This document shows positions 2,187 through 29,774 of a stretch of 64,000 nt of DNA, in pieces. The stretch comes from Parcubacteria group bacterium (GTDB lineage Bacteria; Patescibacteriota; Minisyncoccia; Moranbacterales; UBA9337): positions 119,757-183,756 of the forward strand of contig JBAZSW010000001.1 in assembly GCA_041662245.1 (NCBI GenBank), written 5' to 3'. The first letter of the stretch is position 1, and each line of letters opens with the position of its first letter. The notes below the pieces were generated by a model that was not told the DNA's origin, ran no database searches, and saw nothing but the letters and a program-made list of their open reading frames with translations. The position numbers and the translations under genes were made by a program.

Positions 2187-2193
2187 AATTAAA

Positions 2194-5100
2194 ATGGAAA
2201 AAGATAATTTAGATCCAAGAAAAGTAGCGGAAAACTTGGGTGATGAGATTAGAAAAAATTTGAAAAATAAAAACGTTTCAACTGAGGCGGTTTTTGAGGG
2301 TGAGCAGAAAGAAGCTTCAGCGAAAAAAGATCCGATTATGACATCCGAAGATGAATTAAAAACAGGCCTAGATGAAGCACAGACTTCCAATAAAAAACCC
2401 AAGAAAGAAGAACTGACGTCAGAGGAGAAAGAAAAAGTTTATAAGTTGAAGAAAGATTTGGAAGATATTTTTAAAAGAAAAGAATTTGAAAATTATAAAA
2501 AAAAGAATCCGGATAGATTGGCGGAATACATCAGGCAGATAACAAGACAGGCGGAAAATAATATTAAAAAGGAGAAAGAATGGGATGCTTTAGATATCTT
2601 ATTGGATAAAGCTAAAAAAAGTAAGGCAACTACGCTAATCAGAATTTTGGAGGAAATAAAAAATAATAGGGGAACGGAAAAAATAAAAGAAAATTGGACA
2701 TTGGAAGAAATAAACGAAAGATTAAAATCAGCCGGTGCTGAAGATGAAGATATTAAATACTTTTTTACACTAATTAAAAAAGATAGATTAGATTTTCTTA
2801 ATTCAAATGATGAGGATCTGAGATTTAGAATTGGAAAATTAAAAGAAATGAGAGAAAGTGATAAAACAAGGCAAGAAAGTGCTGAAAATCAGGAAGAAAA
2901 AGTCGAAAAAGAGATGTTATCAACTGAAAATAATGACGAGGAAAAAGAAGTGGAAAATAGAAGAGTGTTGAAATATCTAGGAGGAGAAGTAGAAAGGTGT
3001 CGAAAAGAATACGTTAAAAAAGAAGATGAAGTGGGGGTTAAAATTTCTCGACTCAAAAATTTCTTTCGAAATCTTATTTCTATTGATAAAACTTATGAAA
3101 TTGAGAAAGAATTAGAAACTTACAAAGAAGAATATGAGAGAGCTCTGAAAAATCATTTGGAGGCGGTAGTTGATATTTTGGGTATTTCTAGCGAAGAAGA
3201 GCTAAAAAATTTACTTAATTATACTAAATTTGAAGAAAAACTGAATTTAATAAACGCCAAGGAGGATTTAAAATTTGAAAATGATCCTCGTTTGGAAAGT
3301 TTTAAGATACATTTTAAATCATGGGCAGTGGGCGCCTTGGAAGGCTACAAAAATTTGTTAGCCAAACCTCGAGAATTAATTACACAAAAAACTGGTTCAA
3401 AAATAAAAGGATTTGCTGGTGGAATGATCGCAGTGGGAGGAGCGATGGCATTTGCAAGCAATTATATTCCTGGACTAAGAAATGTGACCGTTCCCCTGAG
3501 TGTAGCGATAGCAACCATGGGATTTCAAAAAAGAGCTCAAGAAAAAGTTGAAATTGAAAAAGGGCAGTCTTTGGAAAGAGGGTTGGCAGATTTGCAAACT
3601 AGATTGGCGGGAATGGATGATAATCTAAAAAAAGAAATTCTTAAAAGAGAATTAGGAATGGAAATAAAAGATATTCCCGAAAAAGTTATTCGAGAAACAG
3701 AAGAAAAATATAAAAGATATTTATATTCTTTTGGTAAGGCTGTAGCCGTGAGTACTTTTTTCTATGAAGTAGGACAGTATGTCAGGGGGTATCTTTCTGG
3801 TTCGGAAACGGATCATCTCAATGAATCTATAATGAAAGACAATCTTGTGAAGGCGGGGGTTAAACTTCCTCCAACCCAAGACGAAACTTATCATATTAAT
3901 CGTCATCCAGAGGCCAATACCGCGGGAATAGCTGATGGAAGACCAGCGGGTATTCATGGAATGCAAAATCAAAAAATAATGGATGAGCCAAAAATTCCCG
4001 AAGGAGTAGCGCCTATAAAAGCAGAAACTATTCAAGAAACATTCAAAAAATTTGGAATAAAAGATTTAGATGCGAATCCTAATGAATCTCCAGAAGCTAA
4101 TCCTACCGATGCATCACATCCCGAAATTAAAAGCGACACTAATCCTACAAAAAGTGAAGAATTAGATAGCAAGGAGGGTGGAACGAGCGAGGAAATTAAT
4201 GTTTCAGAAAACAACGAAGATATTTTTAAAAATGAAGCACTAGAAACGCCAGAAATAAAGAGGACAGAATTTTCTGGTATTGAGTTGAATAACTCTAATA
4301 ATGGAGAATTGATAATAAAACAAAAGGATAGTGTTATCGGTACCATTGCCAAATTTTTAGAAAAAAATAGCGACAAATTGACAGAGGGGAAAATGGGTTT
4401 TGATCCAGCTAAATATTCCGGAGCAACCCTAGAAGAAAAAATTCATAGTTGGTCACAGATAAGAGCCAATGCTATCGCTAAAGAATTTGCTCGTGCTAAT
4501 AGTGAATATAATTTAAATAAAGTATCAGATGGTTCAAGCATCGCTTTAAATCTAAATAATTTAGCTGATATAAAAATCGAGCATCTCAATGATCAATATC
4601 ATTTAGGAGGAGAAGCTGTCTCTCAAGAAATTCCGATAAGCGCAACTGATAATGCAGAGAGGTTAATAGAGGTAAAAGAAACTATTAGATTAGAAAATGC
4701 CACTAAGGATGAAATGGAATTAGTTCATAAAATAGGATTAACTCCCAAAGAATATGCGGATTTGAATGACAAATCGGTGATAAATTTTCTTGATTCTAAA
4801 AATTCTGATAATCCCATTGATTCCAGTGCTCAATTAAAAAATATTCTTAAATATTTGATTAAAGAGGGATCAATTAACAATGTAAATAGTAGTGTTTCAG
4901 ACGCGATTAGAAGCTTGGATGAGCATTCCTTGGGAAAAATATTTGATAAGAGCAGTCAAATATTTACCCCCGATTTTTCTTTGCGAGAAGATTTTAATTA
5001 CAGTGAATATGTGGGAGAAGTGGTTAAAAATGAGCTATCAGAAGTGATTCGAGATAAATCTATTTTAGGTTTGGTTTTTAAGGAGATTGGCAGTATTAAA

Positions 5101-5301
5101 GGAAATATAATAAGCAGTGAGCCTACGGGTGGAATTTTTGATTCATTTAAGCAAGTGGCAGAAAAAACGCTTGGAGTGGAAAATATAAGGTCAAGAAACG
5201 ATGACACGGTGGCTAAATATGTGGTAAAATCATTTAAACGAGCCTATGAATTGGGGAAATTGGATGAACTTAAATTGGCACTAAAAAATATCAAAAAATA
5301 A
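2194..5301 (+). CDS. Hypothetical large protein (1035 aa) with central hydrophobic hairpin
   Basis: Starts 8 nt after the previous gene. Charged coiled-coil N-terminal half. Gly/Ala-rich hydrophobic segment GFAGGMIAVGGAMAFASNYIPGLRNVTVPLSVAIATMGF in the middle. No recognisable catalytic motif. Confidence 0.5.
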   Translation: MEKDNLDPRKVAENLGDEIRKNLKNKNVSTEAVFEGEQKEASAKKDPIMTSEDELKTGLDEAQTSNKKPKKEELTSEEKEKVYKLKKDLEDIFKRKEFENYKKKNPDRLAEYIRQITRQAENNIKKEKEWDALDILLDKAKKSKATTLIRILEEIKNNRGTEKIKENWTLEEINERLKSAGAEDEDIKYFFTLIKKDRLDFLNSNDEDLRFRIGKLKEMRESDKTRQESAENQEEKVEKEMLSTENNDEEKEVENRRVLKYLGGEVERCRKEYVKKEDEVGVKISRLKNFFRNLISIDKTYEIEKELETYKEEYERALKNHLEAVVDILGISSEEELKNLLNYTKFEEKLNLINAKEDLKFENDPRLESFKIHFKSWAVGALEGYKNLLAKPRELITQKTGSKIKGFAGGMIAVGGAMAFASNYIPGLRNVTVPLSVAIATMGFQKRAQEKVEIEKGQSLERGLADLQTRLAGMDDNLKKEILKRELGMEIKDIPEKVIRETEEKYKRYLYSFGKAVAVSTFFYEVGQYVRGYLSGSETDHLNESIMKDNLVKAGVKLPPTQDETYHINRHPEANTAGIADGRPAGIHGMQNQKIMDEPKIPEGVAPIKAETIQETFKKFGIKDLDANPNESPEANPTDASHPEIKSDTNPTKSEELDSKEGGTSEEINVSENNEDIFKNEALETPEIKRTEFSGIELNNSNNGELIIKQKDSVIGTIAKFLEKNSDKLTEGKMGFDPAKYSGATLEEKIHSWSQIRANAIAKEFARANSEYNLNKVSDGSSIALNLNNLADIKIEHLNDQYHLGGEAVSQEIPISATDNAERLIEVKETIRLENATKDEMELVHKIGLTPKEYADLNDKSVINFLDSKNSDNPIDSSAQLKNILKYLIKEGSINNVNSSVSDAIRSLDEHSLGKIFDKSSQIFTPDFSLREDFNYSEYVGEVVKNELSEVIRDKSILGLVFKEIGSIKGNIISSEPTGGIFDSFKQVAEKTLGVENIRSRNDDTVAKYVVKSFKRAYELGKLDELKLALKNIKK

Positions 5302-6147: not shown

Positions 6148-8634
6148 ATGTTTGATCTTAATTCTATTTTGTTATTTCTAGTAGTTGCTTTAGGCAGTAT
6201 GTCTGCTATTAGTGGCTTGTTTTTGGTGGTGCGTAGTTTCTTTCGCTTTCGTATTCAAATAAATTATTCTATAAACATGGATTTGGAGGTTGTCAGGGTG
6301 ACAAAAACAAATAAGAAAGATGGTGCTTCTATGGGGGGTGGACAAAACGGAGAAGTCTGGAAAGAAGAAGTGGGAGCAATGGAACAGTTGCTGACCACTT
6401 TATCAAAGACTAGAGTAAATAAATCATTTTTAAATAAAATTTTTTATGACGTTCCTTGTATTTCTCTAGAAATAGCTAAACCTTCCAATAGTGAAGAAAT
6501 ATTTTTTTATGTTGCTATTCCTAGAAAATTAAGAGAAACTATTGAAAAACAAATTCACAGTTATTTTCCTAACGCTTCTATAGAAAAAATTTCGGATTAT
6601 ACTATTTTTTCTCCGGGGAGCTTTACTGCCTCTGCCGTTTTGGAATTGAAAAATAGACATGCTCTTCCGGTAAAAACGTATGTCTATATGAATGGTGATC
6701 CTCTTAATGAAATTTCTAATTCATTGAGTAAATTTAAGGCAGATGAAGAGGGAGCGTCAATTCAGTTAGTGATTACCCCTGCCAAAAGAGGTTGGCAGAC
6801 ATTGGGAAAAACAATTGCGCATAGAATGCAACAAGGAAAAAGACTTAAAGATGTGCATAGTGATTCATTGATTTCAAAAATGGGAAGCGAAATAGGAAAA
6901 GGCGCAGGTGATGTTTTAAGTACTTTGATGGCCAGTAATAAGCCAAATAATGACTTGGAAAAGAAAAATATTATTCAATTGACACCAGAAGAGCAGGAGC
7001 TTATTAAATCCATAGAGAGTAAGTCTAACAAAGCTGGTTTTAAAGTTAACATAAGACTGTTGGCTTCAGCAGATTCTCAAGGTAGAGCGGATGAAATATT
7101 GGCTCAAATAGAAAATTCTTTTTCTCAATTTGAAAATCATGGAGTTAATTATTTTAAAATTAAGAAAAGGACAAAAAATAAAGATAATTCTTTCGATTAT
7201 ATTTTTAGAAATTTTAATGATGATAATGCTATAATTCTTAATACTGAAGAGATAGCTAGTATTTTTCATTTTCCAATTTCCACTACAGAGACTCCTAAAA
7301 TTAAATGGCTTAAAGCCGGGGCGGCTCCACCGCCAATAAATATTCCTTCAGAGGGAATATTATTGGGATATAATGATTATCGAGGAGAAAAAACAGATAT
7401 AAGACTATCTGATAGCGATAGACGAAGACATCTTTATACAATTGGACAAACTGGAGTTGGAAAATCACATTTTCTTCAAGCCATGGCTAAGCAGGATGTG
7501 ATGAATGGTAAAGGAATTTGTTTTATTGATCCCCATGGGGATGCAATCGAAGATATATTAGCTGCAGTTCCGAAAGAAAGGGCGGAAGACGTAATTATTT
7601 TTAATCCAGCGGATAGTGAAAGACCCCTAGGATTAAATATGCTTGAATACGACAGACCTGAAGAGAAAAGTTTTGTGATTAATGAAATGATCAGTATTTT
7701 TGATAAATTATACGATCTAAAGCAAACAGGAGGTCCAATGTTTGAACAATATGCGAGAAACGCAATGCTTCTTGTAATGGAGCATCCTGAATCAGGCTCA
7801 ACCCTAATGGAAATTCCCAAGGTTTTAGCAGATGAAGAATTCAGAAAAATGAAATTATCTCATTGTAATAATCCGGTAGTGAGAGATTTTTGGATAAAAG
7901 AAGCAGAAAAAGCAGGAGGAGAGGCAGCTTTGGCCAATATGGTACCTTATATCACCTCTAAACTTACCACCTTTATTTCCAATGATTTGATGCGACCAAT
8001 AATTGCTCAGCAAAAAAGCGCTTTAAACTTTAGAAGTATCATGGATGAAGGAAAAATATTACTTATCAATCTTTCCAAGGGAAGAATTGGAGAAATCAAT
8101 AGTCATCTTTTGGGAATGGTGATGGTTGGCAAGATTTTAATGGCAGCTCTTTCTCGAGTAGATATGCCAGAAAATGAGCGCAAAGATTTTTATTTATATA
8201 TCGATGAGTTTCAAAATGTAACGACTGATTCAATCTCTCAAATTCTTTCAGAAGCTCGAAAATATAGATTGAATTTAATTATTGCCCATCAGTTTATCGG
8301 CCAGTTGAGCGAGGAAATATCTAAAGCGGTTTTTGGTAATGTTGGATCATTATGTGCTTTTCGAGTAGGCCCAGAAGACGCGGAATTTTTAGAAAAACAA
8401 TTTGAACCGATTTTTACTGCTAGTGATTTGATTAATGTAAATAACTATAGCGGTTTTGCTAAATTATTGATTAATAATGACACGACTAAGCCATTTAATA
8501 TAAAAACTTATCCACCTAGAGAAGGTAATAAGGAAATTTCCAAATATCTTAAAGAGATGTCTCGTTTAAAATATGGTCGAGATGCTAATATTGTTAATCG
8601 AGAGATAATGGAAAGAACTAAATTTAGAACTTAA
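6148..8634 (+). CDS. VirB4/TraE/TrbE-like conjugative/type IV secretion ATPase (AAA_10/HerA-DUF87-like), N-terminal TM segments (VirB3-VirB4 fusion-like)
   Basis: N-terminal TM segment LFLVVALGSMSAISGLFLVV. Walker A HLYTIGQTGVGKSH followed by the FIDPHGD motif characteristic of HerA/VirB4-family ATPases. Walker B-like LYIDEFQNV. The gene is immediately followed by a VirB2/TrbC-like pilin gene. Confidence 0.7.
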   Translation: MFDLNSILLFLVVALGSMSAISGLFLVVRSFFRFRIQINYSINMDLEVVRVTKTNKKDGASMGGGQNGEVWKEEVGAMEQLLTTLSKTRVNKSFLNKIFYDVPCISLEIAKPSNSEEIFFYVAIPRKLRETIEKQIHSYFPNASIEKISDYTIFSPGSFTASAVLELKNRHALPVKTYVYMNGDPLNEISNSLSKFKADEEGASIQLVITPAKRGWQTLGKTIAHRMQQGKRLKDVHSDSLISKMGSEIGKGAGDVLSTLMASNKPNNDLEKKNIIQLTPEEQELIKSIESKSNKAGFKVNIRLLASADSQGRADEILAQIENSFSQFENHGVNYFKIKKRTKNKDNSFDYIFRNFNDDNAIILNTEEIASIFHFPISTTETPKIKWLKAGAAPPPINIPSEGILLGYNDYRGEKTDIRLSDSDRRRHLYTIGQTGVGKSHFLQAMAKQDVMNGKGICFIDPHGDAIEDILAAVPKERAEDVIIFNPADSERPLGLNMLEYDRPEEKSFVINEMISIFDKLYDLKQTGGPMFEQYARNAMLLVMEHPESGSTLMEIPKVLADEEFRKMKLSHCNNPVVRDFWIKEAEKAGGEAALANMVPYITSKLTTFISNDLMRPIIAQQKSALNFRSIMDEGKILLINLSKGRIGEINSHLLGMVMVGKILMAALSRVDMPENERKDFYLYIDEFQNVTTDSISQILSEARKYRLNLIIAHQFIGQLSEEISKAVFGNVGSLCAFRVGPEDAEFLEKQFEPIFTASDLINVNNYSGFAKLLINNDTTKPFNIKTYPPREGNKEISKYLKEMSRLKYGRDANIVNREIMERTKFRT

Positions 8635-13244: not shown

Positions 13245-15044
13245 ATGGGACAGGAAATAGAGATGATAAAATCCAAATTAAATATTGTTGATTTAATTGG
13301 AGAATATGTTCGTTTGCAAAAAGCTGGTAACAACTGGAAAGCTTGTTGCCCATTTCATAATGAAAAAACGCCCTCTTTTTCCGTTAGTGAAGATAAACAG
13401 GTGTGGCATTGTTTTGGTTGTGGGAAGGGGGGGGATATTTTTGGATTTTTAATGGAAATAGAAGGATTAAATTTCAGAGAGGCTCTTGAAAATTTGGCTC
13501 AAAAAACAGGAGTAGATTTGCCCAAATATGATAATCGAGGAAATAGCACAATTGAAGAAAAAAATAAAATTTGGGACATTTTAGAATTGGCTACACGTTT
13601 TTATGAAAAACAATTGCAGGAAGGAGAAGCGGGGAAAAATATTTTGAAATATTTAAAAGAAAGAGGATTGACGGAAGAAACAATTCGTGAATTTAGAATT
13701 GGATATGCTCCAGATGGCTGGAGGAATATCGTCAGTTTTTTGGTAAATAAAAATTATGATACTAAGGATATCCTAGGAACAGGATTGATTATTCAAAAAG
13801 ACGAAAAATCTTTAGGAAAAGAAAATTTTTATGATCGTTTCAGGGATCGAATAATGTTTCCTATAGCTAATGCAGCGGGAAAAATAATTGGTTATTCGGC
13901 CAGAGTTTCTCCTGGTGGAGATGAATCTCAAGCTAAATATATCAATACTCCCGAAACAGAAATTTATCATAAAAGTAATGTTTTGTACGGAATAGATAAA
14001 GCTAAAATGAGCGCAAAAGCAAAAGATTGGATGCTTTTGGTGGAGGGAAATATGGACGTAATTGCCTCGAGTCAAGCGGGAATAAAAAATACAGTGGCGG
14101 TTTCAGGCACAGCTCTTACGGGGGATCAATTAACTATTATTAAGAGATATACTAAAAATATTAAAATGTTTTTCGATATGGATGAGGCTGGACAGAAGGC
14201 AGCCAAAAGGAGTGCTCAATTAGCTTTTGAAAAAGAATTGAATGTTTCCATTGTGGCAATTGATGATGGTAAAGACGCGGCGGATGCAGTTAAAGAAAAT
14301 ATTCAAAAATTTATAAAATCAATTGACGAATCTTTGTCAGCTATGGAATATTTTATTAAAAAATCTTTGGAAAACAGAAATAAAAATAATATAGAAGATA
14401 AAAAGATTATTATTGAAGAACTCTCAAGTTTAATTAATAGTTTTTCTAATAAGGTGGAGGCAGCTCATTGGACGAAGGAACTTGCAGAAAAACTGAATAT
14501 TCCCGAGGGAATCTTAGCTGAAGAATTCGCAAAAAGAAAGTATGTTTCAAATATTACGAATGAACGTTATTCGAATTACAATGACTTAAATGAGGATAGA
14601 ATGAATTATAATAGAATTAAAGATATTCAGATTCAAATAATGGGGACTTTTATTAGCGAAGATGAACTTTGGAGGGAATCGATTGAAAAATATCGCGAGG
14701 AAATTGAAAAATATTTTACTAACGCCAAAATAGTGGATATCATTATGAACAAGGGAAAAATGTATAATTTTAATTTCGAAAAATTATTAGACGGATTGGA
14801 TAGTTTTGAGCAGAAGAAATTTTTGAGAGAACTGTATTTTAAGAATTGCGAAAAAAATGAAGAGTTGGTGTCTATAGAAGAAAAACGAAAAGTAGTTGCT
14901 CAATACTTTGTTGAGCTTAAGAAAGAAATTACTAGGGAAAAGAGTAATAGTATAGTAGAACAGATTAAGGAAGCAGAAAAAAGTGGTAACAGGGGGAAAC
15001 TGGAAGAATTGACAAAAGAATTGATGAGTTTAAATAAAATTTAA
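13245..15044 (+). CDS. dnaG: DNA primase DnaG
   Basis: CHC2 zinc finger CPFHNEKTPSFSVSEDKQVWHCFGCGKGGD. TOPRIM motifs LVEGNMDVIA and DMDEAGQKAA. Confidence 0.9.
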   Translation: MGQEIEMIKSKLNIVDLIGEYVRLQKAGNNWKACCPFHNEKTPSFSVSEDKQVWHCFGCGKGGDIFGFLMEIEGLNFREALENLAQKTGVDLPKYDNRGNSTIEEKNKIWDILELATRFYEKQLQEGEAGKNILKYLKERGLTEETIREFRIGYAPDGWRNIVSFLVNKNYDTKDILGTGLIIQKDEKSLGKENFYDRFRDRIMFPIANAAGKIIGYSARVSPGGDESQAKYINTPETEIYHKSNVLYGIDKAKMSAKAKDWMLLVEGNMDVIASSQAGIKNTVAVSGTALTGDQLTIIKRYTKNIKMFFDMDEAGQKAAKRSAQLAFEKELNVSIVAIDDGKDAADAVKENIQKFIKSIDESLSAMEYFIKKSLENRNKNNIEDKKIIIEELSSLINSFSNKVEAAHWTKELAEKLNIPEGILAEEFAKRKYVSNITNERYSNYNDLNEDRMNYNRIKDIQIQIMGTFISEDELWRESIEKYREEIEKYFTNAKIVDIIMNKGKMYNFNFEKLLDGLDSFEQKKFLRELYFKNCEKNEELVSIEEKRKVVAQYFVELKKEITREKSNSIVEQIKEAEKSGNRGKLEELTKELMSLNKI

Positions 15045-15188
15045 TTTTTTGTGGGGTATTGGAAATAATTTTGTTAGATTAATTGAATGAAGGGCATGCT
15101 TTTAATTCGAGACATAAAATGTTTGCAAATATTTGTTTTTATGCTAAAAATGATATAGAATACAGACATTAAAGGAAGCGCATTATTT

Positions 15189-16652
15189 GTGTCAGTTTTC
15201 TTTTGTTTTTTGGTTAAGAAATTTACTTTTAAAAAAATGGCTACAATTAAGAAAAAACTCAATAAAAAAAAGGCCCCAAAGAAAAAAAGGGTTATTTCTA
15301 AACTTTCTGGTAAGAAGATTTCAACAAAGAATAAAAGACTGACAAAAAAAGTTACTAAGAAATTTTTAAAAAAAGTCGCTAAGAAAAAAAATACTCCAAG
15401 GAGTACCAAAAAAATTGTGAAAAAAAATAAAAAAATATCAAAAAAGATAGTGAAGAAGGTCGTGAAAAAATCAGTAAAGAAGATAGTAAAAAAAGTAGCT
15501 AGGAAAAAAACAAAAAAAATAGTATCAACAAAAAAAGATAAAAAAGTCTTAAAACCGAAGGAAAAAATAATTAATGTTATTGATGATTTGGTTTTTCGAG
15601 GAAAGCAAAGAGGTTTTATAACTGAAGATGAGATTATCCACACCTTTCCTGATATGGAAAAAAACATAGAAGAATTGGAGGAACTCTATAGTAAATTGGA
15701 AATAGGGGGAGTGAGAATAATGAGTTCCGGTGAGGTGATAAAAAATGAAACAGATAAAATAGCAGAAAATTTTTCTGCTAGCAAAGCTAGTAAGAAAAAA
15801 GCTATAGAAGAATCAGAGCCAAACTATAATGATTCAGTCCAAATGTATTTGAGAGAAATCGGTAAAGTTCCACTTTTGAAATCGGATGATGAGGTAAGAT
15901 TGGCAAAATTGATTGAAAAAGGAGATATTCCTGCTAAGCAGAAGTTGACCGAATCTAATCTTCGTTTAGTGGTGAGTATTGCTAAAAAATATGTAGGAAG
16001 ATCCAATAATCTTTCTTTGTTGGATTTGATTCAAGAAGGTAACATTGGGCTATTTAAAGCAGTAGAAAAATTCGATTATCATAAGGGCTATAAATTTTCT
16101 ACTTATGCAACGTGGTGGATTCGCCAAGCGATAACTCGAGCGTTAGCCGATCAATCCCGAACTATTCGTATTCCTGTGCATATGGTAGAAACTATCAATA
16201 AATATACCCAGATTGTTAGACAACTGGTACAGGAATTAGGAAGAGAGCCATTGGCTGAAGAAATTGCGGCAGAAATGGATATGGAAGTAGATAAAATTAG
16301 ACATATCCAAAAGATTTCTCAAGAAACTGTTTCTCTAGAAACCTCTATCGGAGATAGTGATGACGATAGTGTTTTGGGAGATTTTATTGAAGATACAGAA
16401 ACAATTATGCCTGATCAAACTGCTTCTCGTACTTTGCTTAAAAGTCATGTGACGGAAATACTAGAAGAACTTAGTCCTCGAGAACAAAGAATTCTTAAGA
16501 TTCGTTTTGGGTTGGATGATGGTGTGACTCATACTCTTGAAGAGGTAGGACAAGAATTTGGAGTAACTCGCGAGCGTATCCGACAAATTGAAGCTAAAGC
16601 TTTGGATAAAATAAGAAATCAAAAAGGTCTCGGGAAATTAAGAGATTATTAA
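15189..16652 (+). CDS. rpoD: RNA polymerase sigma-70 factor RpoD with ~110-aa polybasic (KKxx-repeat) N-terminal extension
   Basis: Region 2 [13 protein letters not shown]. Region 4 [23 protein letters not shown]. The N-terminal ~110 aa are Lys-rich repeats ([15 protein letters not shown]...). The true start is probably the Met of MATIKKKL, near 15237. Confidence 0.85.
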
Positions 16653-16679: not shown

Positions 16680-17042
16680 ATGGAAAATATAAGTTTTGAA
16701 AAATCTAAACCAACGGTAGTTGAATCTGGGAAAGATAAAGGTTTAGAATTAAGTGGTCCCAATAAAAGAATTATTGAGTTATCCAAAAAAGAGTTAGGAA
16801 AAATTTTGGGATTTGGTTTGAAAAGTATAGAGGAAGATGCAGAATTGATGGAGGTGGCTGGTAAAAATTTTTTGGAAAATGAAGGGGTTTTAGCTAATAA
16901 AATTATGGAATGGGATAAGGCTCTAAGTGATATTAATAAGGACGCGACAATTGTAGAGAGTATGCTAGCTAAAAATTTTGCCGATAGTATAGCTAATTTT
17001 ATTAAAGAGGAATCAAAACTAAAAAATAGGTTTAATAATTAA
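16680..17042 (+). CDS. Hypothetical protein (120 aa)
   Basis: ORF only. No motif recognised. Confidence 0.35.
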   Translation: MENISFEKSKPTVVESGKDKGLELSGPNKRIIELSKKELGKILGFGLKSIEEDAELMEVAGKNFLENEGVLANKIMEWDKALSDINKDATIVESMLAKNFADSIANFIKEESKLKNRFNN

Positions 17043-17074: not shown

Positions 17075-17193
17075 AGTCTTTGTTGGCTTTGGAATTGTAT
17101 TTTTTTAGTTTTTAAAATTGGGCTTAGTTTTTTACTAAGTCGAACATTAAAAATTATATTCCGCGATAGCTCAGTGGTAGAGCAGTTGGCTGT

Positions 17194-17758
17194 GAACACA
17201 ATCTTTTGTATAATTAATTTATATGAAAGATACAAGAAAATACACTGATCGTTCTGAATATTTAAAACAAGCTGTATCTAAAAGAAGAAAGAAAATAAGA
17301 GATATAGCAATTGAATATAAGGGCGATAAATGTTTTATCTGTGGTTATGACAAATGCAAAAATGCATTAGAATTTCATCATACCGACCCAGTGAAAAAAG
17401 AATTTGGATTATCTAAATCAGGATTAACTCGTAGCTGGGAACGTGTAAAAAATGAAATTGAGAAGTGTGTTTTAGTTTGTGCTAATTGCCATAGAGAATT
17501 ACATGACAAAAACGCAGCCCTCAGTAGAAATACTAAGGTGAAAATAAGGTGAATTGCTGGAAGTCTAAAATCTTTTTTCAGTGTAAAGATTACGATAATC
17601 AGCAGCCGAGCCCCGACGTGACGTCGAGGAAGGTTCAGAGACTATCCCTTCGGGGAGTACTTTCTCTTTAATTAGAGATGGGAAGCGCCTTATCTCATAA
17701 TCTTTTGTAAGAAATGAGAATGATATAGTCCACCCTTTTTGGAAACAAGAAGATAAGT
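17194..17758 (+). mobile_element. Group I self-splicing intron with HNH homing endonuclease ORF (ORF in P1 loop, catalytic core 17553-17758)
   Basis: Canonical group I core elements are present. R element GGTTCAGAGACTA is at 17631-17643. S element GATATAGTCC is at 17721-17730, forming P7 with AGACTA. The 5' exon ends in U and the intron ends with an omega-G. The HNH ORF is embedded upstream of the core. Confidence 0.75.
17223..17552 (+). CDS. HNH homing endonuclease (intron-encoded)
   Basis: Zinc-binding pairs CFICGYDKC and CANCHRELH. HNH motif EFHHTDP...N...H. The ORF lies inside the tRNA intron. Confidence 0.75.
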   Translation: MKDTRKYTDRSEYLKQAVSKRRKKIRDIAIEYKGDKCFICGYDKCKNALEFHHTDPVKKEFGLSKSGLTRSWERVKNEIEKCVLVCANCHRELHDKNAALSRNTKVKIR

Positions 17759-17792
17759 GTAACCAATTGGTCGGGGGTTCGAATCCCTCTCG

Positions 17793-18085
17793 CGGAGCAA
17801 ATTAAGAAAGATACCTGCAAAGGTATCTTTTTTAATTTGCTCCGCGAAGAAAGTGAATGGTTTCACTTTTGTGAGGGTTCGAAAGTCGGAGTGTTGTGTG
17901 AGTTTTTCTGTTTAGGCAGAAAAGGCAAACACCACGAGACGGGGTCGCGAAATTTTTACGTCAGGAAAAATATTTGTGACAGAATCCCTCTCGCGGAGCT
18001 GCGAAAAACTCAAAAAAGACTACCTTATCAGGATAATCTTTTTTTGTTTTGTATTTTTCCTAGGACCGTCCTAGAAATAGGTAGA
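17793..18085 (+). repeat. Direct repeat 1 (~290 bp) of island; begins at tRNA 3' end and contains a second copy of the tRNA 3' end (GAATCCCTCTCGCGGAGC at 17984-18001)
   Basis: Near-identical (~93%) to 22911-23203. It contains a terminator hairpin and an internal 18-nt duplicate of the tRNA T-loop/acceptor 3' strand. The ORF-track ORF 17837-18115 inside it is judged spurious. Confidence 0.8.
17807..17836 (+). terminator. Rho-independent terminator after tRNA 3' exon (inside direct repeat 1)
   Basis: Stem AAAGATACC / GGTATCTTT with loop TGCAAA, followed by a T-run. An identical hairpin lies in direct repeat 2 at 22921-22950. Confidence 0.6.
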
Positions 18086-18782
18086 AGTATGTATCTATTT
18101 ATGCTAAAATCATAACATATGAGCAGAAGAGAAAAAATAATTATAGGAGAGTATTATCATATTTTTAATCGTGGAGTGGAGAAGAGAAAAATATTTAATA
18201 ATAAAAATGATTATTTTCGTTTTTGCAATTCGATGATTTTTTTGAATACGGAAAAACCTTCTAAAATGTCTTTTGACAAATTTGATGATAATGAACGTCC
18301 TTCTGACAATGAGATGTTAGTAGATATTGTTGCGTACTGCTTAAATTCAAATCACTTTCATTGCATTTTAAAAGAGAAACGGGAAAATGGAATTGCGACT
18401 TTTATAAAAAAAGTTTGTACAAGTCATGCTATGTATTTTAATAAAAAATATGAAAGATCAGGAGTATTGTTTCAGGGAAGATTTAAATCGGTACATATAG
18501 ATTCAAATGATTTACTGTTGTATTTATCTGCCTATGTTAATTGCAATAGTCAGGTTCACAAAATAGAGGATGCTGAAAAATATCCTTGGTGTAGTTTTCC
18601 TGAGTATTTAGGCGGGCTTGGAATTGGATGTCAAAAGTCTATCATTCTCGATCAATTTAAAAGTTCAATTGATTATAAAACATTTTGTTTAGAAAAAGTT
18701 GATGGAATGATAAGTAGGAAGGATAATGAAAAATTATGTTTTGAATAGTCATAATTTCTAGGACCGTCCTAGCTAGTTAGTG
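18060..18782 (+). mobile_element. RayT/IS200-like HUH-Y1 transposase gene flanked by identical 15-bp perfect palindromes CTAGGACCGTCCTAG (REP/REPtron-like unit)
   Basis: Palindromes at 18060-18074 and 18768-18782 bracket the ORF at 18119-18748. A third copy lies at 23839-23853 and a degenerate copy in direct repeat 2 near 23176. Confidence 0.6.
18119..18748 (+). CDS. REP-associated tyrosine transposase RayT / IS200-like Y1 HUH transposase (COG1943-like)
   Basis: N-terminal YYHIFNRGVEKRKIFNNKNDYFRF matches the COG1943 pattern (YHV.NRGN.RQ.IF...D..F). HUH motif NHFHCIL. FQGRFKS. Catalytic Tyr region LYLSAYVNCN. Confidence 0.65.
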   Translation: MSRREKIIIGEYYHIFNRGVEKRKIFNNKNDYFRFCNSMIFLNTEKPSKMSFDKFDDNERPSDNEMLVDIVAYCLNSNHFHCILKEKRENGIATFIKKVCTSHAMYFNKKYERSGVLFQGRFKSVHIDSNDLLLYLSAYVNCNSQVHKIEDAEKYPWCSFPEYLGGLGIGCQKSIILDQFKSSIDYKTFCLEKVDGMISRKDNEKLCFE

Positions 18783-18784
18783 AA

Positions 18785-19336
18785 ATGGTTAAGCTGGGTG
18801 ATATTTGTGATATATATATTGGCGGGACACCATCAAGGAAAATTGGTAAATATTGGGGCGGAAAAAATCTCTGGGTTAAAATAAAAGATATGAAGAAGAA
18901 TGCTTCTTCTATAATGGATACGGAGGAAAAGATAACAGATGAGGGTATCAATAAGTCCAGCGTTAAGCTTCTCAAAAAAGGAACTTTATTGTTTAGTTTT
19001 AAATTAACAATAGGAAAGGTTGTTATTGCAGGAAGAGATCTCTATACAAACGAAGCTATCGCTGGTATAGTTCCGAAGGACGGTAAGGTTTTAATGAAAT
19101 ATTTATATTACATATTGCCTAGGTTAGATTATTTATCTTATTGTCAACGAGCAACGAAAGGTATGACTTTAAACAAAGAAATCTTAAATAGCCTGAGTAT
19201 ACCATTGCCTTCTGTTGCAGAACAAGAAAAAATAATAAAAAAGCTTGATGAAATAGAATTGAGAAAATATAAATATTTAGAGAATTTAAAAAATGCCACC
19301 GCTGAGCAAGATAGAGAAATTTTAAATATCTTGTAG
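18785..19336 (+). CDS. Type I restriction-modification specificity subunit HsdS-like, single target-recognition domain (orphan)
   Basis: LGDICDIYIGGTPSRK start. TRD core with NEAIAGIVP. C-terminal conserved region SIPLPSVAEQEKIIKKLDEIE (PLPPLAEQ-type). Only 183 aa. No hsdM/hsdR in the window. Confidence 0.65.
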   Translation: MVKLGDICDIYIGGTPSRKIGKYWGGKNLWVKIKDMKKNASSIMDTEEKITDEGINKSSVKLLKKGTLLFSFKLTIGKVVIAGRDLYTNEAIAGIVPKDGKVLMKYLYYILPRLDYLSYCQRATKGMTLNKEILNSLSIPLPSVAEQEKIIKKLDEIELRKYKYLENLKNATAEQDREILNIL

Positions 19337-19373
19337 CAGTATAAATTTTTTAATATTCAATTTATTTGTTATA

Positions 19374-20045
19374 ATGAAAAAAAGAAATAAATCAAAAACA
19401 AATATGAAAAAAAAATCATTAATCACGCATAGTCAACATTTTGTTCTTACAAATGATAAAATAATTCGTACCGCTCTTAAAGAAAAATTAGAGGAGTCTT
19501 ATTTTGGAATAAAAAATACTAAGATTATTGAAGAATTAGGCATTACTCATGGGGAGGCTCGTATTGACATAGCTGTTGTTAACGGTGTTATACATGGCTA
19601 TGAACTAAAGAGTGACAGGGACACATTAAAACGGTTGCCTGGTCAGATTGAAATATATAACACAGTTCTTGATAAGGTAACACTAGTGGTGGGAATGAAT
19701 CATTTGCATGAAGCGATGAAAATCGTTCCAGATTGGTGGGGTATAACAATTGCAAAAATAGTAAATTCAGATAGCGTAGTTTCTTTTTTTAATATTCGAG
19801 AACCAGAAGAAAATAAAAATCAAAACAGCGCTGCTGTTGCTGCACTGTTATGGAGAGAAGAAGCTCTCAAAATATTGGAGAATATAGGACAAGCCAAGGG
19901 GATGCAATCAAAAAGTAGAAAGGCTATATATGAAAAATTGGCTGATGTTTTAGAAAAAAAATCTTTAAATAAAATCGTTCGGGAACAGCTACGTACTAGG
20001 GTAAATTGGCGATCTGATTTGCAGTGCATACCAAGTGGTGGTTAA
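19374..20045 (+). CDS. PD-(D/E)xK-fold nuclease-like protein (sce7726-family-like)
   Basis: Motif GEARIDIAVVNGVIHGYELKSDRD (D ... E-x-K). Convergent with, and overlapping, a 372-aa partner gene. The family assignment comes from memory of family descriptions, not a search. The true start may be the second Met (MKKKSL, ~19404). Confidence 0.4.
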   Translation: MKKRNKSKTNMKKKSLITHSQHFVLTNDKIIRTALKEKLEESYFGIKNTKIIEELGITHGEARIDIAVVNGVIHGYELKSDRDTLKRLPGQIEIYNTVLDKVTLVVGMNHLHEAMKIVPDWWGITIAKIVNSDSVVSFFNIREPEENKNQNSAAVAALLWREEALKILENIGQAKGMQSKSRKAIYEKLADVLEKKSLNKIVREQLRTRVNWRSDLQCIPSGG

Positions 20046-21114
20046 TACCTGCTGTTAGCCATGTTTCAGTGCTTCCAGTGCCTTTAATTTCTGGGTTTAG
20101 TTGGTATTTTTCAAAATGTTTCCCCTTATCAAATATATACTTGTCGCCAATGCTAAAATTTTCTCCCATAAAAAGATCTACATCCTCTGATAGTAGTTTT
20201 GCATTGGCTAAATAGAGTTCATACTTTTGTTTTTTACCTTTCATGATTAGCCAATTACTTTCCAGTGTATATTTTATACTAGTGGTGGGAGGAAAGAATT
20301 GAAAAGATTCTTTGTATATTGGATGCTGAATTGTGTAATCTGCAAATATCGGATTTCTTTGCAGGGTTTTTGCGCTAACATAACCAAGCCAACCTATCCA
20401 ATCATGACGAGGAAGATAATTTTCTTCATCAAGTTTGCACTTGGATAAATCTAGGGGAAAAGCGCCACCTGCAAAAATAAATGATCTCCATTTTGATAGG
20501 TTGTGAATTTGCTGACTCTTAGTTATATATGTTTGATATTTGCCATCATTTTCTTCGACACTTTTAATATCTACTAATAGGTCAATATTCTTTTCTTCTA
20601 GATTGTAAGAAGTTAAAAAATCATTAATTTTTTTATTCAGCACATCTATGTCAGAGAAATCAGAACAAACTATTCGCAAGCACAAACCGTTGTTGTGTTT
20701 TTTTGCTAATAATCCGACGATATTTTTAATCTGAAGATCATCGTTAATGTTTATCACTGGAATCAAAACCATCCCGTTGGCACCTCCTTTTGTTAGTATT
20801 TTTTCAAAGCATGTTATTTTCAATGACGTGGTGTATAGGAGACTAAAATCAATAAATATTGGATCTTTTCCCCAAAACTTCAAAATTTCTTCTGAAATTT
20901 CAGGTATTTTTTCACTAAACGTTGCTATGACTTTATTAAATTTTTCCTCTTGAGTTTGTTCCGATGCTTCTTTTGTGCTTGATTTTGGCTTTGGCATTAC
21001 GAACTGAATTAGTGGAGTAATATATCTTTTACTTTCATCATTTAAAGCCTCTAGGGCTTTTTGCTCAGCACGTTTCCATTTTAATATTGGCACATAATGT
21101 TTTGCTTCAAACAT
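19996..21114 (-). CDS. Hypothetical 372-aa protein, possible Beta-protein (PF14350)/sce7725-family-like partner of the PD-(D/E)xK protein
   Basis: N-terminus MFEAKHYVPILKWKRAEQKALEAL resembles the YVPILK.K.GE..AL start I recall for Beta_protein/sce7725 families. Its 3' end overlaps the convergent gene at 19374-20045 by about 50 nt. This is an inference only. Confidence 0.3.
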   Translation of the reverse strand: MFEAKHYVPILKWKRAEQKALEALNDESKRYITPLIQFVMPKPKSSTKEASEQTQEEKFNKVIATFSEKIPEISEEILKFWGKDPIFIDFSLLYTTSLKITCFEKILTKGGANGMVLIPVININDDLQIKNIVGLLAKKHNNGLCLRIVCSDFSDIDVLNKKINDFLTSYNLEEKNIDLLVDIKSVEENDGKYQTYITKSQQIHNLSKWRSFIFAGGAFPLDLSKCKLDEENYLPRHDWIGWLGYVSAKTLQRNPIFADYTIQHPIYKESFQFFPPTTSIKYTLESNWLIMKGKKQKYELYLANAKLLSEDVDLFMGENFSIGDKYIFDKGKHFEKYQLNPEIKGTGSTETWLTAGINHHLVCTANQIANLP

Positions 21115-21115
21115 A

Positions 21116-22321
21116 CTAGTTAGTCCATTTTTCCTCAGGAAAATATTCTTTAACTTTTGCCTGATTTATAATGTTATTTAAATAAATATAATTACCTCCA
21201 GCGCGTCGCATTTTACCAGCAACGATAGCTATGTGTATTCCCAATTCCCTTGCTAGACTTTTTGCTGCCATAGAGTTAGGCATCAAACTAGCTGGGCTTA
21301 CCTCCCATCTACCCTCAGGAACGAGAGCTTCCGATGCTAATTTATCAGCTTCATCTTCCGTGATATTAATATCAGTATTATCTAAATCGTCATAGAAAAA
21401 ATCAGATCCTTGGTTGTAGTGAAGCGCAATATGTGCAAGTTCATGCATTAGGGTAAACCAAAAGTTATCAAGACGATTATGTCGGATTGTTAGTCCGATA
21501 ATAGGTTTATTTTTGTTTGTTAGAATTGTTGCACCATCCAGGTATGTTTGAGTGAAGTGAGGTTCTATTATTAAAATAATCCCATATTTTTTTAAAAAAT
21601 TACGAGCAGCAACAGGTCCATTTTCTCTTATGCTTAATTTTGCCAATTCTTGCATAAAGGTTAAATTTATTAACTCCGACTTAAATGGGGAAACATTTTT
21701 TATTTTGCTTGCTTTTCTTACTACAATAGTAGACCAAACAACGAGAGCATGTTTATCCATAGGTCGTGTGGATCTGTAGTTGGTTTTACGAAGCATTCCG
21801 GATAGGCATGCTGGGGAGCCCACAGGAGCAAAAAAATTTTCCATCACGGTTTTTATATCAGATATTGTAGATAATTTTTCTAAATATCCTCGCCTTATCA
21901 TTTCCTTTAATGGGAAACGGTTCCAGACAATATTTTCTGTATTTCTGAATTCGTCAGCTTCTTTTAATAGGACTTTTGCAGGAATACCTAATCCGGCTTC
22001 AAGAGCTCTTATCATTGAAAGAGTTAATTGTCTTTTGCGAGAGAGAATTTCTGAGACCTTGCTTCTGCTTCCGATATAAGGTACTAAATCTGATGGTTTT
22101 AAATTCTGTTGTTCCATTCTAAATAAGATCGCATCAATTGGATCTGGCAAAGACTCCGGAATTATTTTTGATTCATAATCCTTTATTAGTGTTATTAGGA
22201 GACTTAGTTTTTCACCATTCTCTGAGTTAGGATCGGGATTTTTGTCCATTAAATTCTCGACTAACTTTATAGCCTCTTGATAATCTTCTTCAGTTTTTAT
22301 AACCTTGATTTTAGTTGTCAT
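21116..22321 (-). CDS. HTH (XRE-like) + ImmA/IrrE-family zinc metallopeptidase fusion; HigA-type antitoxin partner of HigB
   Basis: HEXXH motif in MHELAHIALH with downstream FYDD (COG2856-like). N-terminal helix-turn-helix region. It lies 15 nt downstream of the HigB-like gene on the same strand. Confidence 0.65.
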   Translation of the reverse strand: MTTKIKVIKTEEDYQEAIKLVENLMDKNPDPNSENGEKLSLLITLIKDYESKIIPESLPDPIDAILFRMEQQNLKPSDLVPYIGSRSKVSEILSRKRQLTLSMIRALEAGLGIPAKVLLKEADEFRNTENIVWNRFPLKEMIRRGYLEKLSTISDIKTVMENFFAPVGSPACLSGMLRKTNYRSTRPMDKHALVVWSTIVVRKASKIKNVSPFKSELINLTFMQELAKLSIRENGPVAARNFLKKYGIILIIEPHFTQTYLDGATILTNKNKPIIGLTIRHNRLDNFWFTLMHELAHIALHYNQGSDFFYDDLDNTDINITEDEADKLASEALVPEGRWEVSPASLMPNSMAAKSLARELGIHIAIVAGKMRRAGGNYIYLNNIINQAKVKEYFPEEKWTN

Positions 22322-25727: not shown

Positions 25728-28700
25728 TTAATTAATAAGTTTTAAAGTGGTTCGTTCTTCAGTGTAATTTCCTGCTTTATCATAAGCTCTTATAATTAAG
25801 ATATAAACACCGTTGGGAATATCTTTAGGAGCTATGTAAAAATCTTTATTTTGTTGCCACCAATTATTTTGAACTTGACCCTGATTATTCAAAAGCCTGA
25901 TTCTATAATGACTGAGATTATCATCAGTTGCATCAAAAGTAACCTTATCTGATCGTTTTTTGGTGAGGATTGGTGGAAAAGGTTGGTTAAAAATCGGTTT
26001 TTTGGTATCTATTTTAAGTTTAGCTTTATTAGTAGAAATAAGATTATCGTTTTTGTCATAGCGTTTAATTTTTATTAATCCAGAAAAATTTTCTTTGAAC
26101 TTTAGAATTTTGCTCCATGTGCCACTGGTACCGACTTTAATAGTTTTCCAAAGTTTAGATTTTTTGTAAATTTTAATTGTTCCATTTACTAAAGTATCTT
26201 TAGTACCTTTTATTTTTATGTTCTTTTTCCAAGCATAGATAGTTTTTTTAAATTGGATATTTTTTTTATTAATTTCAATCTTGATGACTCCTATAATATT
26301 TTTGGGGTTGATATTGAAATTAATTATATAATCATTGGTATTCGCATGTCCAATGCCGTCATCACATCGGATATAATAAGCATAAGTGTTCCCATCCGTT
26401 AGATTATTGATGAGAACTGAATGAGTAGTTTCTCCAGTAACAGTAAAAATGTTTGGCATATCAGCATATGCAATGTTTGGAATAGTAGCATATTTACATG
26501 TGGCATTTTTGTCGGTAGTAACGGAAAGATTAATTTCTGTAATATTCTTGTCTAAATCTTCGCTGGGAGAACCATCGGAAATAACCGGCGGGTTAGTTAC
26601 GCAATCAACTGTCACATTATTTATATTAGAGTTAGTAATTGTGCCATTGCCATTGGTCACAGTGCATGTTTGGCCAGTTGGTTGTGTTAGAACAGTAATT
26701 ATATAATTATTACTACTATAAAGAGCTGTAGCAAAGATAAAAGAACCATTAGCAGTAAGCGTTAAATCGTCTTCACTATTATTTTGCAGGGTGACACTCT
26801 CACTAAGTCCAGAGATAACTCCACCGATGGTATAAACTGGGATAGTAATGATAGTGCTAGCATTGACGCTAGCAGAAATATTAGTGGCCATATCGCGAGT
26901 AAAAGCATAAAGAGTTTTGGATCCCTCAGTAGAAAAAGTGTAGCTAACTGGAATAGTTGTAGACCAAGTACAATTGTTGGAATTATTAATTTCACTGAGA
27001 CAATATCCTGTTATGGCAATATTGTCGGTGGCAATAAATGAATCAACTGGAACAGTAAAAGAAGTGACATTTGCAGGTAAAATAAAACTACTAATATTTG
27101 GTGAGGAAGAGTCCTTTATAATAGTATCGGTTATGTCGTTACCCCAATTGTCAGCGGAGTCTTTTAGAGAAGCCGTTAAAGTTAATAGACCATCATTTAA
27201 AGAAGATAAGTCTATAGTAGCTATTTTATCGCTTGAAGTAGCAATAATTCCAGTTCCTGTGACAGCCGAAGTCGTACTATTTGTATCATCAATAGAATAA
27301 TTATAGGTTGTTCCTACTTCCGCGCTAGTGAAAGAGAAAGAGGCGACTGTTGTATTTCCAACGTTAATATATTGAGTATCAAAATTAATGGAATATCCAT
27401 TTGGAGCTATTATGTCTATTACATCAGTGACTGTTACCGAGGCAGAATTTCTTACAGCCACAACGTTGGTGGTTTCATTATTGGCTGATGCTTGGGAAAT
27501 ACTATCAATGACAATCTCTGAATCTGTCGCTATAGAAATAGCATGAAAAATAAAAGTGGCAACGACCGAGTCTGTTGTTATATATTTAGTGGGATTATTG
27601 GTGCAAACTCCAACAATAATAGAAGCTGTTCCATTTATATTATCTATGGAGGCTTCCTCTAATACTACGGACAACTCCGGATCTGTTGAGCATCCTGACG
27701 TCTCTATAGTATCAATGCTACTTAAACTAAATTTGGACGAATCAAAAGTCACATGCAACTCTACCGCTGCCACTTCGTTGGATCCCGGATCAATTTTTGC
27801 AGTTATTATAATGTCGCTTCCTATATCTACTGTGCCTATTGATGGATCAAGGTATAATATACCATCTGCGCAATTAACTATGATATTGGAAACATTGGCA
27901 CTAGAAACTGTACCAGAGCCATTGGTCACTGCACAAATTTGTCCGTCTGGTTGATCATAAACAGTAACATTGTATGAGCTTCCATCATGTAAAGCTGTAA
28001 CAAAATCAAAAGAATCATCAGCAGTAAGCGTTAGATTATCTCCCCCGTTATTTTGTAAGATAACACTGCCATCAAGACCAGAAAGAGTTCCACCAATGGT
28101 GTAGGTTAAAAGAGTAATAATAACTGAATCATTAAAGTTAGTAGAAATATTATTGGATTCATCACGTGCGAAAGCATAGAGAATTTTGTTGCCTTCCGAA
28201 GAAAAAAGGTGGCTAGATGGAATAGTGGCACTCCAAGTGCAAGTATCTGAGTCGTTGGTTTCGCTGATGCAATATTCAGTAACAGCTACATCGTCTGAAG
28301 CTGCAAAAGTGATGGGGGAAACATTAAGGGAATTGGAGGTAGCAGGAATAACGAAATTAGTTATAACGGGAGGAGTAGTGTCAGGGATAGTTGGATAATA
28401 TTCGTCTGCTCCAATATCCCAAGTGTTATCTGGACGACTGTCTCCATCTATATCATTTGAAAAAGAAATATTGCTATCATCACTTAAGTCGGCCCCCTTA
28501 TCAATTGCATCATTGTCAGTTGAAATTAAATGCAATTTTTCAATACCAGCAGTGGTATTTACAAAAGTCAAAGTTTTGTTTCTATAATAAGTATTGAAAG
28601 CGGGGGCAGTGGCGTCTTTAGAAAGATTATTAGTTGAAGTGGCAACGAAAGTTCCTGAATAATCAATGGCATTATTGTATGAAATATTATTTTTAATTAA

Positions 28701-29720: not shown

Positions 29721-29774
29721 TACGTAATCAATTTTAATTTAATTATAAAGATATAAAAATCAAAAGACATTTTA

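Follow-up and report, generated by a model that had tools for sequence, protein, structure and literature searches.

By the textbook account, primary σ factors are strongly acidic, with a region 1.1 that mimics DNA and thereby prevents free σ from binding to it. In the holoenzyme of RNA polymerase (RNAP), region 1.1 sits in the downstream DNA channel. This position is summarized in PMC11888270, a study of Mycobacterium tuberculosis (Mtb) σA, which has a disordered extension of 205 residues that is needed for high steady-state transcription. Deletion of residues 1–205 reduces the steady-state Vmax ~100-fold, leaving the apparent promoter affinity unchanged, and the extension alters the response to CarD and RbpA; holoenzyme recycling was suspected by the authors, the mechanism being still unknown (PMC11888270). 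Lysine-repeat tails stabilize enzyme–DNA complexes in Streptomyces TopA, and lysine repeats, which were proposed to be typical of GC-rich genomes, are statistically enriched in DNA-binding proteins, among them HupS, FtsK, Ku, and HrdB (PMC5714199). Here we describe the rpoD (sigA) gene in a stretch of 64,000 nucleotides (nt) from a Parcubacteria group bacterium (contig JBAZSW010000001.1, positions 119,757–183,756 of the forward strand), the whole of which is called the window below. Its product is a complete group 1, Firmicute-type SigA with a polycation of ~110 residues, predicted to be disordered, ahead of region 1.1.

The mechanical list of open reading frames (ORFs) gives a + strand ORF with a GTG start at 15189 and a stop at 16652, encoding a σ70 protein. 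From the likely start at ATG 15237, the gene spans 15237–16652 (+) and encodes 471 amino acids (aa) before the stop, and Pfam and NCBIfam identify a primary (group 1) σ factor. Five Pfam regions follow one another in order, each exceeding its own cut-off and regions 1.2 to 4 exceeding theirs by far: region 1.1 (PF03979, residues 115–178, 15579–15770 (+), E = 2.6e-9, 37.4 bits against a cut-off of 22.5), region 1.2 (PF00140, residues 199–230, 15831–15926 (+), E = 9e-15), region 2 (PF04542, residues 238–309, 15948–16163 (+), E = 5.1e-22), region 3 (PF04539, residues 318–393, 16188–16415 (+), E = 2.1e-22), and region 4 (PF04545, residues 409–461, 16461–16619 (+), E = 1.1e-16). Among NCBIfam profiles, TIGR02393 (RpoD_Cterm) scores 357.4 against a cut-off of 354, and the best full-length match is the Firmicute-type RpoD profile NF006666, which aligns from residue 106 on with a score of 474, below its cut-off of 572. 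The closest solved relative is Bacillus subtilis SigA (7ckq_F; query 113–471 against chain 15–369, E = 1e-110), with which the core matches end to end from region 1.1 to region 4 without any non-conserved insertion between regions 1.2 and 2. B. subtilis SigA starts ~14 residues before region 1.1 and lacks the basic tail of the window σ.

Because regions 1.1 to 4 are all found after the tail, the protein is a complete group 1 σ factor with a tail added to it. An earlier note on this DNA had rightly assigned the tail to a primary σ factor but had taken it to stand instead of region 1.1. On the contrary, region 1.1 is present at residues 115–178, aligns with that of B. subtilis SigA, carries a net charge of −8, and forms a small helical domain in the AlphaFold prediction, with helices at 107–125, 130–136, 144–157, and 164–182 and a predicted local distance difference test score (pLDDT) of 71–79. 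Eleven of its residues (R125, G126, F127, T129, E130, D131, E132, I133, H135, P138, and Y151) are invariant in 82 homologues, and the tail is separated from region 1.2 only by this folded region 1.1 and a linker of 18 residues. In the database, the 120 proteins closest to it are RpoD of Candidatus Moranbacteria/Parcubacteria. The host is such a bacterium, uncultured and belonging to the Patescibacteria or candidate phyla radiation (CPR), and the gene encodes its presumed housekeeping σ.

The polycationic extension (residues 1–112, 15237–15572 (+)) is evident from composition, periodicity, and AlphaFold prediction. It contains 44.6% Lys and 48% Lys plus Arg with a net charge of +52, and has only two acidic residues, none of them before residue 101. 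Its residues 5–100 are 46.9% Lys and 51% Lys plus Arg with no Asp or Glu at all, and translation of 15189–15570, the segment that the earlier note described as Lys-rich with KK(V/I)x repeats, gives 42.5% Lys (54/127). The repeats of that description are borne out as well, since basic residues recur with a period of 4 (autocorrelation of 0.38, 0.21, and 0.16 at lags of 4, 8, and 12). The repeat unit can be written KK(V/I/S)x; of the 112 residues, 3 are Pro and 4 are Ala, and the underlying DNA contains degenerate tandem repeats of 12–26 nt. With a tail of +52 and a core of −12, the whole σ has a net charge of +40, so that the tail makes a normally acidic protein strongly basic. AlphaFold gives residues 5–106 a pLDDT below 50 and no secondary structure, and the tail is thus predicted to be intrinsically disordered.

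This composition stands out from its surroundings. The window has 33% GC, with 9.2% Lys in ORFs of at least 150 aa and ~12.5% Asp plus Glu in its ORFs, and apart from the rpoD tail, Lys reaches 40% over 30 residues in none of the ORFs of at least 80 aa in the 64 kb. When the tail alone was searched against Pfam (E ≤ 10) and the PDB sequences, only noise was returned, with no family or solved chain matched.

The N-termini of Mtb σA (5uh5_F) and Streptomyces coelicolor HrdB (8k60_F) were verified against PDB chains and then analyzed for comparison. Like the window σ, Mtb σA has a lineage-specific disordered extension at the extreme N-terminus, the first ~100 residues of which are basic and of low complexity. 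However, its residues 1–103 contain 15% Lys and 8% Arg with a net charge of +19, versus 45% Lys and +52 in the window σ, and are followed by an acidic tract at 104–205 (44% Asp/Glu, net −43), whereas the window σ has no long acidic tract. Mtb σA also lacks a Pfam region 1.1, whereas a canonical folded region 1.1 follows the tail here. HrdB shares with the window σ Lys-rich tetrapeptide repeats (AKKT/AKKA) in the N-terminal part of a primary σ. The HrdB repeats (residues 73–161, 24% Lys, net +20) just reach the Pfam HC2 cut-off, lie between a weak region 1.1 match (18–78) and region 1.2 rather than before region 1.1, and are followed by an acidic stretch at 162–213 (net −18) that has no counterpart in the window σ.

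Thus, the Patescibacteria tail differs from the Mtb and HrdB segments in preceding a canonical region 1.1 and in having about twice the lysine density and charge, and because it lacks a compensating acidic tract, the whole window σ is basic. The proposal that lysine repeats are typical of GC-rich genomes is contradicted by a tail in a genome of 33% GC. Two sub-families of PRK05901.2 annotated as ‘RNA polymerase sigma factor’, NF004565 and NF004564, align over residues 3–470 and 7–462, respectively, although far below their cut-offs. The low-complexity sequence carries no usable homology signal; an origin of the window segment independent of the Mtb and HrdB segments seems more likely.

Beyond σ factors, the tails of actinobacterial TopA, HupB, and HupS resemble the window tail as disordered KKxx/AKKx repeats, which in those proteins add non-specific DNA affinity and processivity (PMC5714199; see also PMC5676037). 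They differ in being C-terminal and Ala/Pro-rich and in belonging to other host proteins of GC-rich Actinobacteria, and no sequence homology to the window tail can be demonstrated. The earlier note had likened the tail to chlamydial Hc1, AlgP, and histone H1, a likeness that holds for composition and no further. Chlamydial Hc1 and Hc2 and the C-terminal domains of histone H1 are likewise very Lys-rich and disordered; the window tail, on the other hand, is fused to σ, unlike the free-standing nucleoid proteins Hc1 and Hc2. The tail matched no Pfam family and no solved chain, neither the Hc1 nor the HC2 profile matched it even at E ≤ 10, and no linker-histone Pfam match occurs in the window σ, which has no globular H1 domain (residues 5–106 being predicted unstructured). 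The tail of one homologue (P0101) gives a weak HC2 match of 25.1 bits against a cut-off of 40. A KPAA repeat of the AlgP type was ruled out by the scarcity of Pro and Ala and by the KK(V/I/S)x unit.

Conservation of the basic tail in the lineage, a point raised in the earlier note, was followed in two sets of relatives. Of the 120 closest proteins, 118 extend beyond the start of region 1.1 by an N-terminal tail of 18 or more residues, mostly 65–153 residues with 29–51% Lys, although four of them (P0004, P0006, P0015, and P0032) are visibly shortened by downstream start calls. A species scan with one genome per species then gave 80 Patescibacteria loci (L001–L080), labeled as Moran-, Kerfeld-, Komeili-, Portnoy-, Nomura-, Uhr-, and Nealsonbacteria, Pacebacteria, and Microgenomatus. 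An open basic frame lies ahead of region 1.1 in all 80, with a tail length of 23–233 aa (median 77), medians of 42% Lys plus Arg and ~3% Asp plus Glu, and a net charge ranging from +7 to +111. The tail is kept over a range of genome GC from 31% to 58%.

A few entries appear tail-less. P0121 starts 159 nt from a contig edge, with its upstream frame open and basic, and P0076 sits on a contig of 1.4 kb. In P0038, which is 359 aa long in NCBI, an in-frame upstream ORF (MAKAKKKSNRKK...) of ~105 basic residues fills the supposed dnaG–rpoD gap. These apparent exceptions are contig-edge or start-codon truncations. Incidentally, NCBI repeatedly cuts the basic tails of σ factors by downstream, sometimes non-canonical starts, as in P0006, P0015 (393 aa), P0038, P0276, and L082 (581–1000), and because of such truncation, basic tails are under-represented in reference protein sets and profile models.

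A wider view was taken with the best 150 representatives at 50% identity from a library of 1.8 billion proteins, which comes without taxonomy. A 40-residue stretch with at least 40% Lys plus Arg before region 1.2 was found in ~29 of the 150, the other 121 being without one. In Solobacterium, a Firmicute, the σ factor has a basic N-terminus of 200 residues that is rich in Lys, Glu, and Ala, and thus contains Glu; its NCBI version has 399 aa instead of 599. Judging from the sequences surveyed, the tail is pervasive in Patescibacteria, and related, less extreme forms occur elsewhere. An open-access literature search returned no description of σ tails in CPR/Patescibacteria, an absence there not being proof that they are undescribed.

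The tail evolves much faster than the core. Compared with the closest species locus, L001, the tail has an amino-acid identity of 49% and a nonsynonymous divergence (dN) of 0.385, versus 96% and 0.033 for the core, a ~12-fold difference in rate. Indels between the two are of whole codons, and the KK columns keep their register. Across the 80 species the tails cannot be aligned, whereas their composition is retained: Glu and Asp are depleted although one mutation away from Lys codons, and the share of Arg among basic residues, R/(K+R), is uncorrelated with GC (r = 0.07). Because Glu and Asp are depleted and Lys persists in GC-rich genomes, the bias points to selection on positive charge rather than drift under AT bias. 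Sequence comparison thus indicates that what selection maintains in the extension across Patescibacteria is its composition and charge rather than its sequence.

The reading frame of the tail has no stop in 112 codons, versus 13 and 10 stops in the other two forward frames, and in none of 20000 composition-preserving shuffles of the tail was the frame open. Because the frame is not open by chance and because the stretch is the single one of its kind in the window, the polylysine N-terminus is real. For the relatives, the absence of stops from the 80 tails follows from how they were defined and was not used; instead, the length of the open frame was set against the stop density in the other two forward frames, which have 5.6% and 6.9% stops per codon, and at such a density open runs of tail length are not expected by chance.

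Concerning the start codon, the first Met of the window σ after residue 1 is residue 140, which is already inside region 1.1. ATG 15237 is likely to be the start, as judged by comparison with homologues. A start at GTG 15189 was rejected, as its 16 extra residues are unconserved and homologues start at the Met that opens the basic tract. A start downstream of the Lys-rich segment, which the earlier note had allowed for, is at odds with the relatives, where the basic segment of all 79 loci with a complete 5′ end begins at an ATG with the motif M-(P/A/K)-K and, in ten loci, a stop codon occurs 0–1 codons upstream of that ATG. The intergenic leader between dnaG and rpoD (15045–15236 (+)), within which the in-frame GTG 15189 lies, provides an A-rich start context (‘aaaaaaATG’), and an A-rich leader ahead of ATG is the local norm, starts being preceded by A/T-rich leaders.

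No Shine–Dalgarno motif precedes ATG 15237, while AAGGAAG occurs 10 nt 5′ of GTG 15189. With GGAG, GAGG, or AGGA counted within 20 nt of the start, the motif was found in 2 of 30 long window ORFs, taken from their first ATG, and in 3 of 79 related rpoD genes. As Shine–Dalgarno sequences are so seldom used in this genome, AAGGAAG was discounted as support for the GTG start and the missing motif at ATG 15237 is uninformative.

An independent coding signature is provided by runs of A. In L001–L080 and the window gene together, 5 A-runs of at least 9 nt were observed against 54 ± 5.5 expected, and those of at least 11 nt were 0 against 13.3 ± 3.1 expected, where the expectation came from shuffling AAA and AAG over the Lys positions within each tail; not one of 500 such permutations gave so low a count. 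Synonymous Lys codons are therefore placed so as to avoid slippery poly(A). Since such avoidance matters only if the frame is kept, it argues that the tail frame is under maintenance, and it is consistent with selection against slippage on poly(A) during transcription or translation.

We consider it probable, by analogy with the lysine-repeat proteins, that the tail is a sequence-non-specific tether to nucleic acid, mainly DNA, on a complete Firmicute-type SigA, and is kept by charge selection. As in actinobacterial TopA, HupB/HupS, and HrdB with their lysine repeats, the tail would work as a non-specific nucleic-acid binding arm, and would hold free σ and holoenzyme to the nucleoid. Region 1.1, to the N-terminus of which the tail is attached, occupies the downstream channel, so that the tail would project at the channel mouth and might capture duplex DNA there. 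Such capture could aid the search for promoters, the displacement of region 1.1, the formation of the open complex, or the return of σ to core after each round. The nearest functional precedent is the Mtb σA extension.

Several points weigh against this tether. DNA binding by the Patescibacteria tail is argued from analogy, and Pfam and PDB searches detected no homology of the tail to characterized DNA-binding tails. RNA, polyphosphate, and the acidic surfaces of proteins are bound by polycations too, so that the ligand of the tail may be other than DNA. The case for translation from ATG 15237 is a comparative one, and NCBI starts the protein at residue 95. The dN/dS of the tail against L001 (~0.18) is rough and indicative only, with synonymous divergence (dS) saturated (proportion of synonymous differences, pS, ~0.7). 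Finally, many record titles of the related loci carry unreliable placeholder taxa.

A stronger version of the tether would have the housekeeping σ double as a histone H1-like nucleoid-associated protein, permanently bound to DNA when free, in holoenzyme, and perhaps after initiation. A chromatin-resident σ would then slide or hop to its promoters, in place of the 3D diffusion of an autoinhibited acidic σ, and the tail would materially help organize the nucleoid in ultra-small cells. We regard this version as unlikely. We also doubt, to a similar degree, that the tail is an electrostatic switch that folds onto acidic region 1.1, onto surfaces of σ or RNAP, or onto an acidic partner, and so tunes autoinhibition or channel occupancy. 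Direct fusion of the tail to region 1.1, acidic at −8 within a core of −12, would suit such a switch, and Mtb σA and HrdB do pair a basic block with an acidic block in cis, the Mtb extension changing the CarD and RbpA response. Nonetheless, the charges are far from balanced, as +52 in the tail faces only −8 in region 1.1 and −12 in the whole core, leaving most of the tail charge without a partner in cis, and tail length varies 10-fold among species in which region 1.1 hardly changes. The tail might instead bind rRNA, nascent RNA, or polyphosphate, for example in coupling RNAP to ribosomes or in condensates of ultra-small cells, given that disordered polycations take RNA no less readily than DNA. 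The most similar PDB chain to the tail is ribosomal protein eL31, although at a non-significant E of 0.22, and an Ala/Lys-rich extension also occurs at the C-terminus of Parcubacteria ribosomal protein uS19 (PMC9297842). This reading seems improbable for a protein that acts on DNA, all the more as DNA is the target of those characterized lysine-repeat tails of bacteria that were checked (PMC5714199).

Two further explanations are disfavored. The degenerate tandem repeats of its DNA, its fast turnover, and its highly variable length are what a neutral expansion by slippage of A-rich repeats would leave at a permissive N-terminus. But a neutral tract would hardly be found in all 80 species including those of 50–58% GC, be strongly depleted of Glu and Asp though GAA is one transition from AAA, retain Lys over Arg whatever the GC, avoid slippery A-runs by synonymous choice, and be the sole such tract in the window, so that we hold little probability for it. 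Still more remote is the explanation that the Lys-rich segment is an untranslated 5′ leader with the real start near residues 95–115. Downstream starts are indeed assigned by NCBI to P0006 (377 aa), P0015, and P0038, and ATG 15237 lacks a Shine–Dalgarno motif. However, P0006 is the NCBI version of the window gene, 100% identical to it, and its start at residue 95 is an ATA codon in the window, while no Met is available before residue 140, and the genome is essentially free of the motif, as judged from 2 of the 30 long ORFs scanned having it. The upstream frame is open, basic, and ATG-initiated in every complete locus and is found even ahead of the ‘tail-less’ P0121 and P0038, and the avoidance of A-runs would be pointless in a leader.

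If the tail does tether σ to DNA, the model of promoter search and of the σ cycle would differ in Patescibacteria, a large share of bacterial diversity, which add a polycation of +30 to +110 onto region 1.1. The combination of tail, canonical region 1.1, and Firmicute-like core would then make a clean system for dissecting what basic N-terminal extensions do for σ. The Patescibacteria tail extends the known class of primary σ factors with basic disordered N-terminal segments and opens no new theme, but a basic tail is unexpected on a normally acidic, autoinhibited protein and its role is easily tested.

Immediately around rpoD, dnaG (DNA primase; 13245–15044 (+); Pfam Zn_ribbon_DnaG, DNAG_N, Toprim, and DnaB_bind) lies directly upstream, an arrangement on the same strand that is found in 78 of the 80 related loci. 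A scan of 14900–15400 for promoter and terminator consensus sequences found none. On the opposite strand, a Phe-rich ORF of 197 aa (15074–15667 (−), 26% Phe) is a composition artefact and not a gene, as the earlier note supposed. Across the tail, 36 of 61 related loci likewise keep an antisense frame free of stops, because the complement of AAA/AAG-rich sequence has few stop codons. Immediately 3′ of rpoD, an ORF of 120 aa (16680–17042 (+)) has no Pfam match.

Further downstream, a tRNA-Asn(GUU) gene at 17160–17798 (+) is split by a group I intron of 566 nt (17194–17759). Its exons (17160–17193 and 17760–17798) splice in silico to a canonical tRNA of 73 nt, with the 5′ exon ending in U and the intron in G. 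The intron core corresponds to Rfam RF00028 at 17461–17752 (77.7 bits, E = 1.3e-19), and an ORF for an HNH endonuclease lies inside the intron at 17223–17552. Both ARAGORN and a scan at the Rfam gathering threshold, run over the whole window, missed this split tRNA.

The 3′ end of the tRNA also bears two repeats. Its last 18 nt (gaatccctctcgcggagc, 17781–17798) recur 200 nt downstream at 17982–17999, resembling an attachment-site duplication. Beyond the repeat are ORFs for an IS200-like Y1 transposase (18119–18748), a ‘Beta protein’ (19996–21114 (−)), and a Peptidase_M78/IrrE-like protein (21116–22321 (−)), and the region 18119–22321 may be an integrated mobile or defence element beside rpoD. 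A near-perfect inverted repeat of 25 bp with a 6-nt loop (17791–17846 (+); CGCGGAGCAAATTAAGAAAGATACC...GGTATCTTTTTTAATTTGCTCCGCG) begins within the 3′ acceptor strand of the tRNA. It was picked up solely as spurious microRNA matches and is probably a terminator or a processing hairpin.

At a greater distance upstream of rpoD, an ORF of 828 aa (6148–8634 (+)) encodes a TrwB/VirD4-like type IV coupling protein. Two large ORFs before it (484 and 1035 aa, 732–5301 (+)) have no Pfam match. On the other side of rpoD, two very large ORFs of 1317 and 1718 aa occupy 25728–34931 (−), and both have hydrophobic N-termini.

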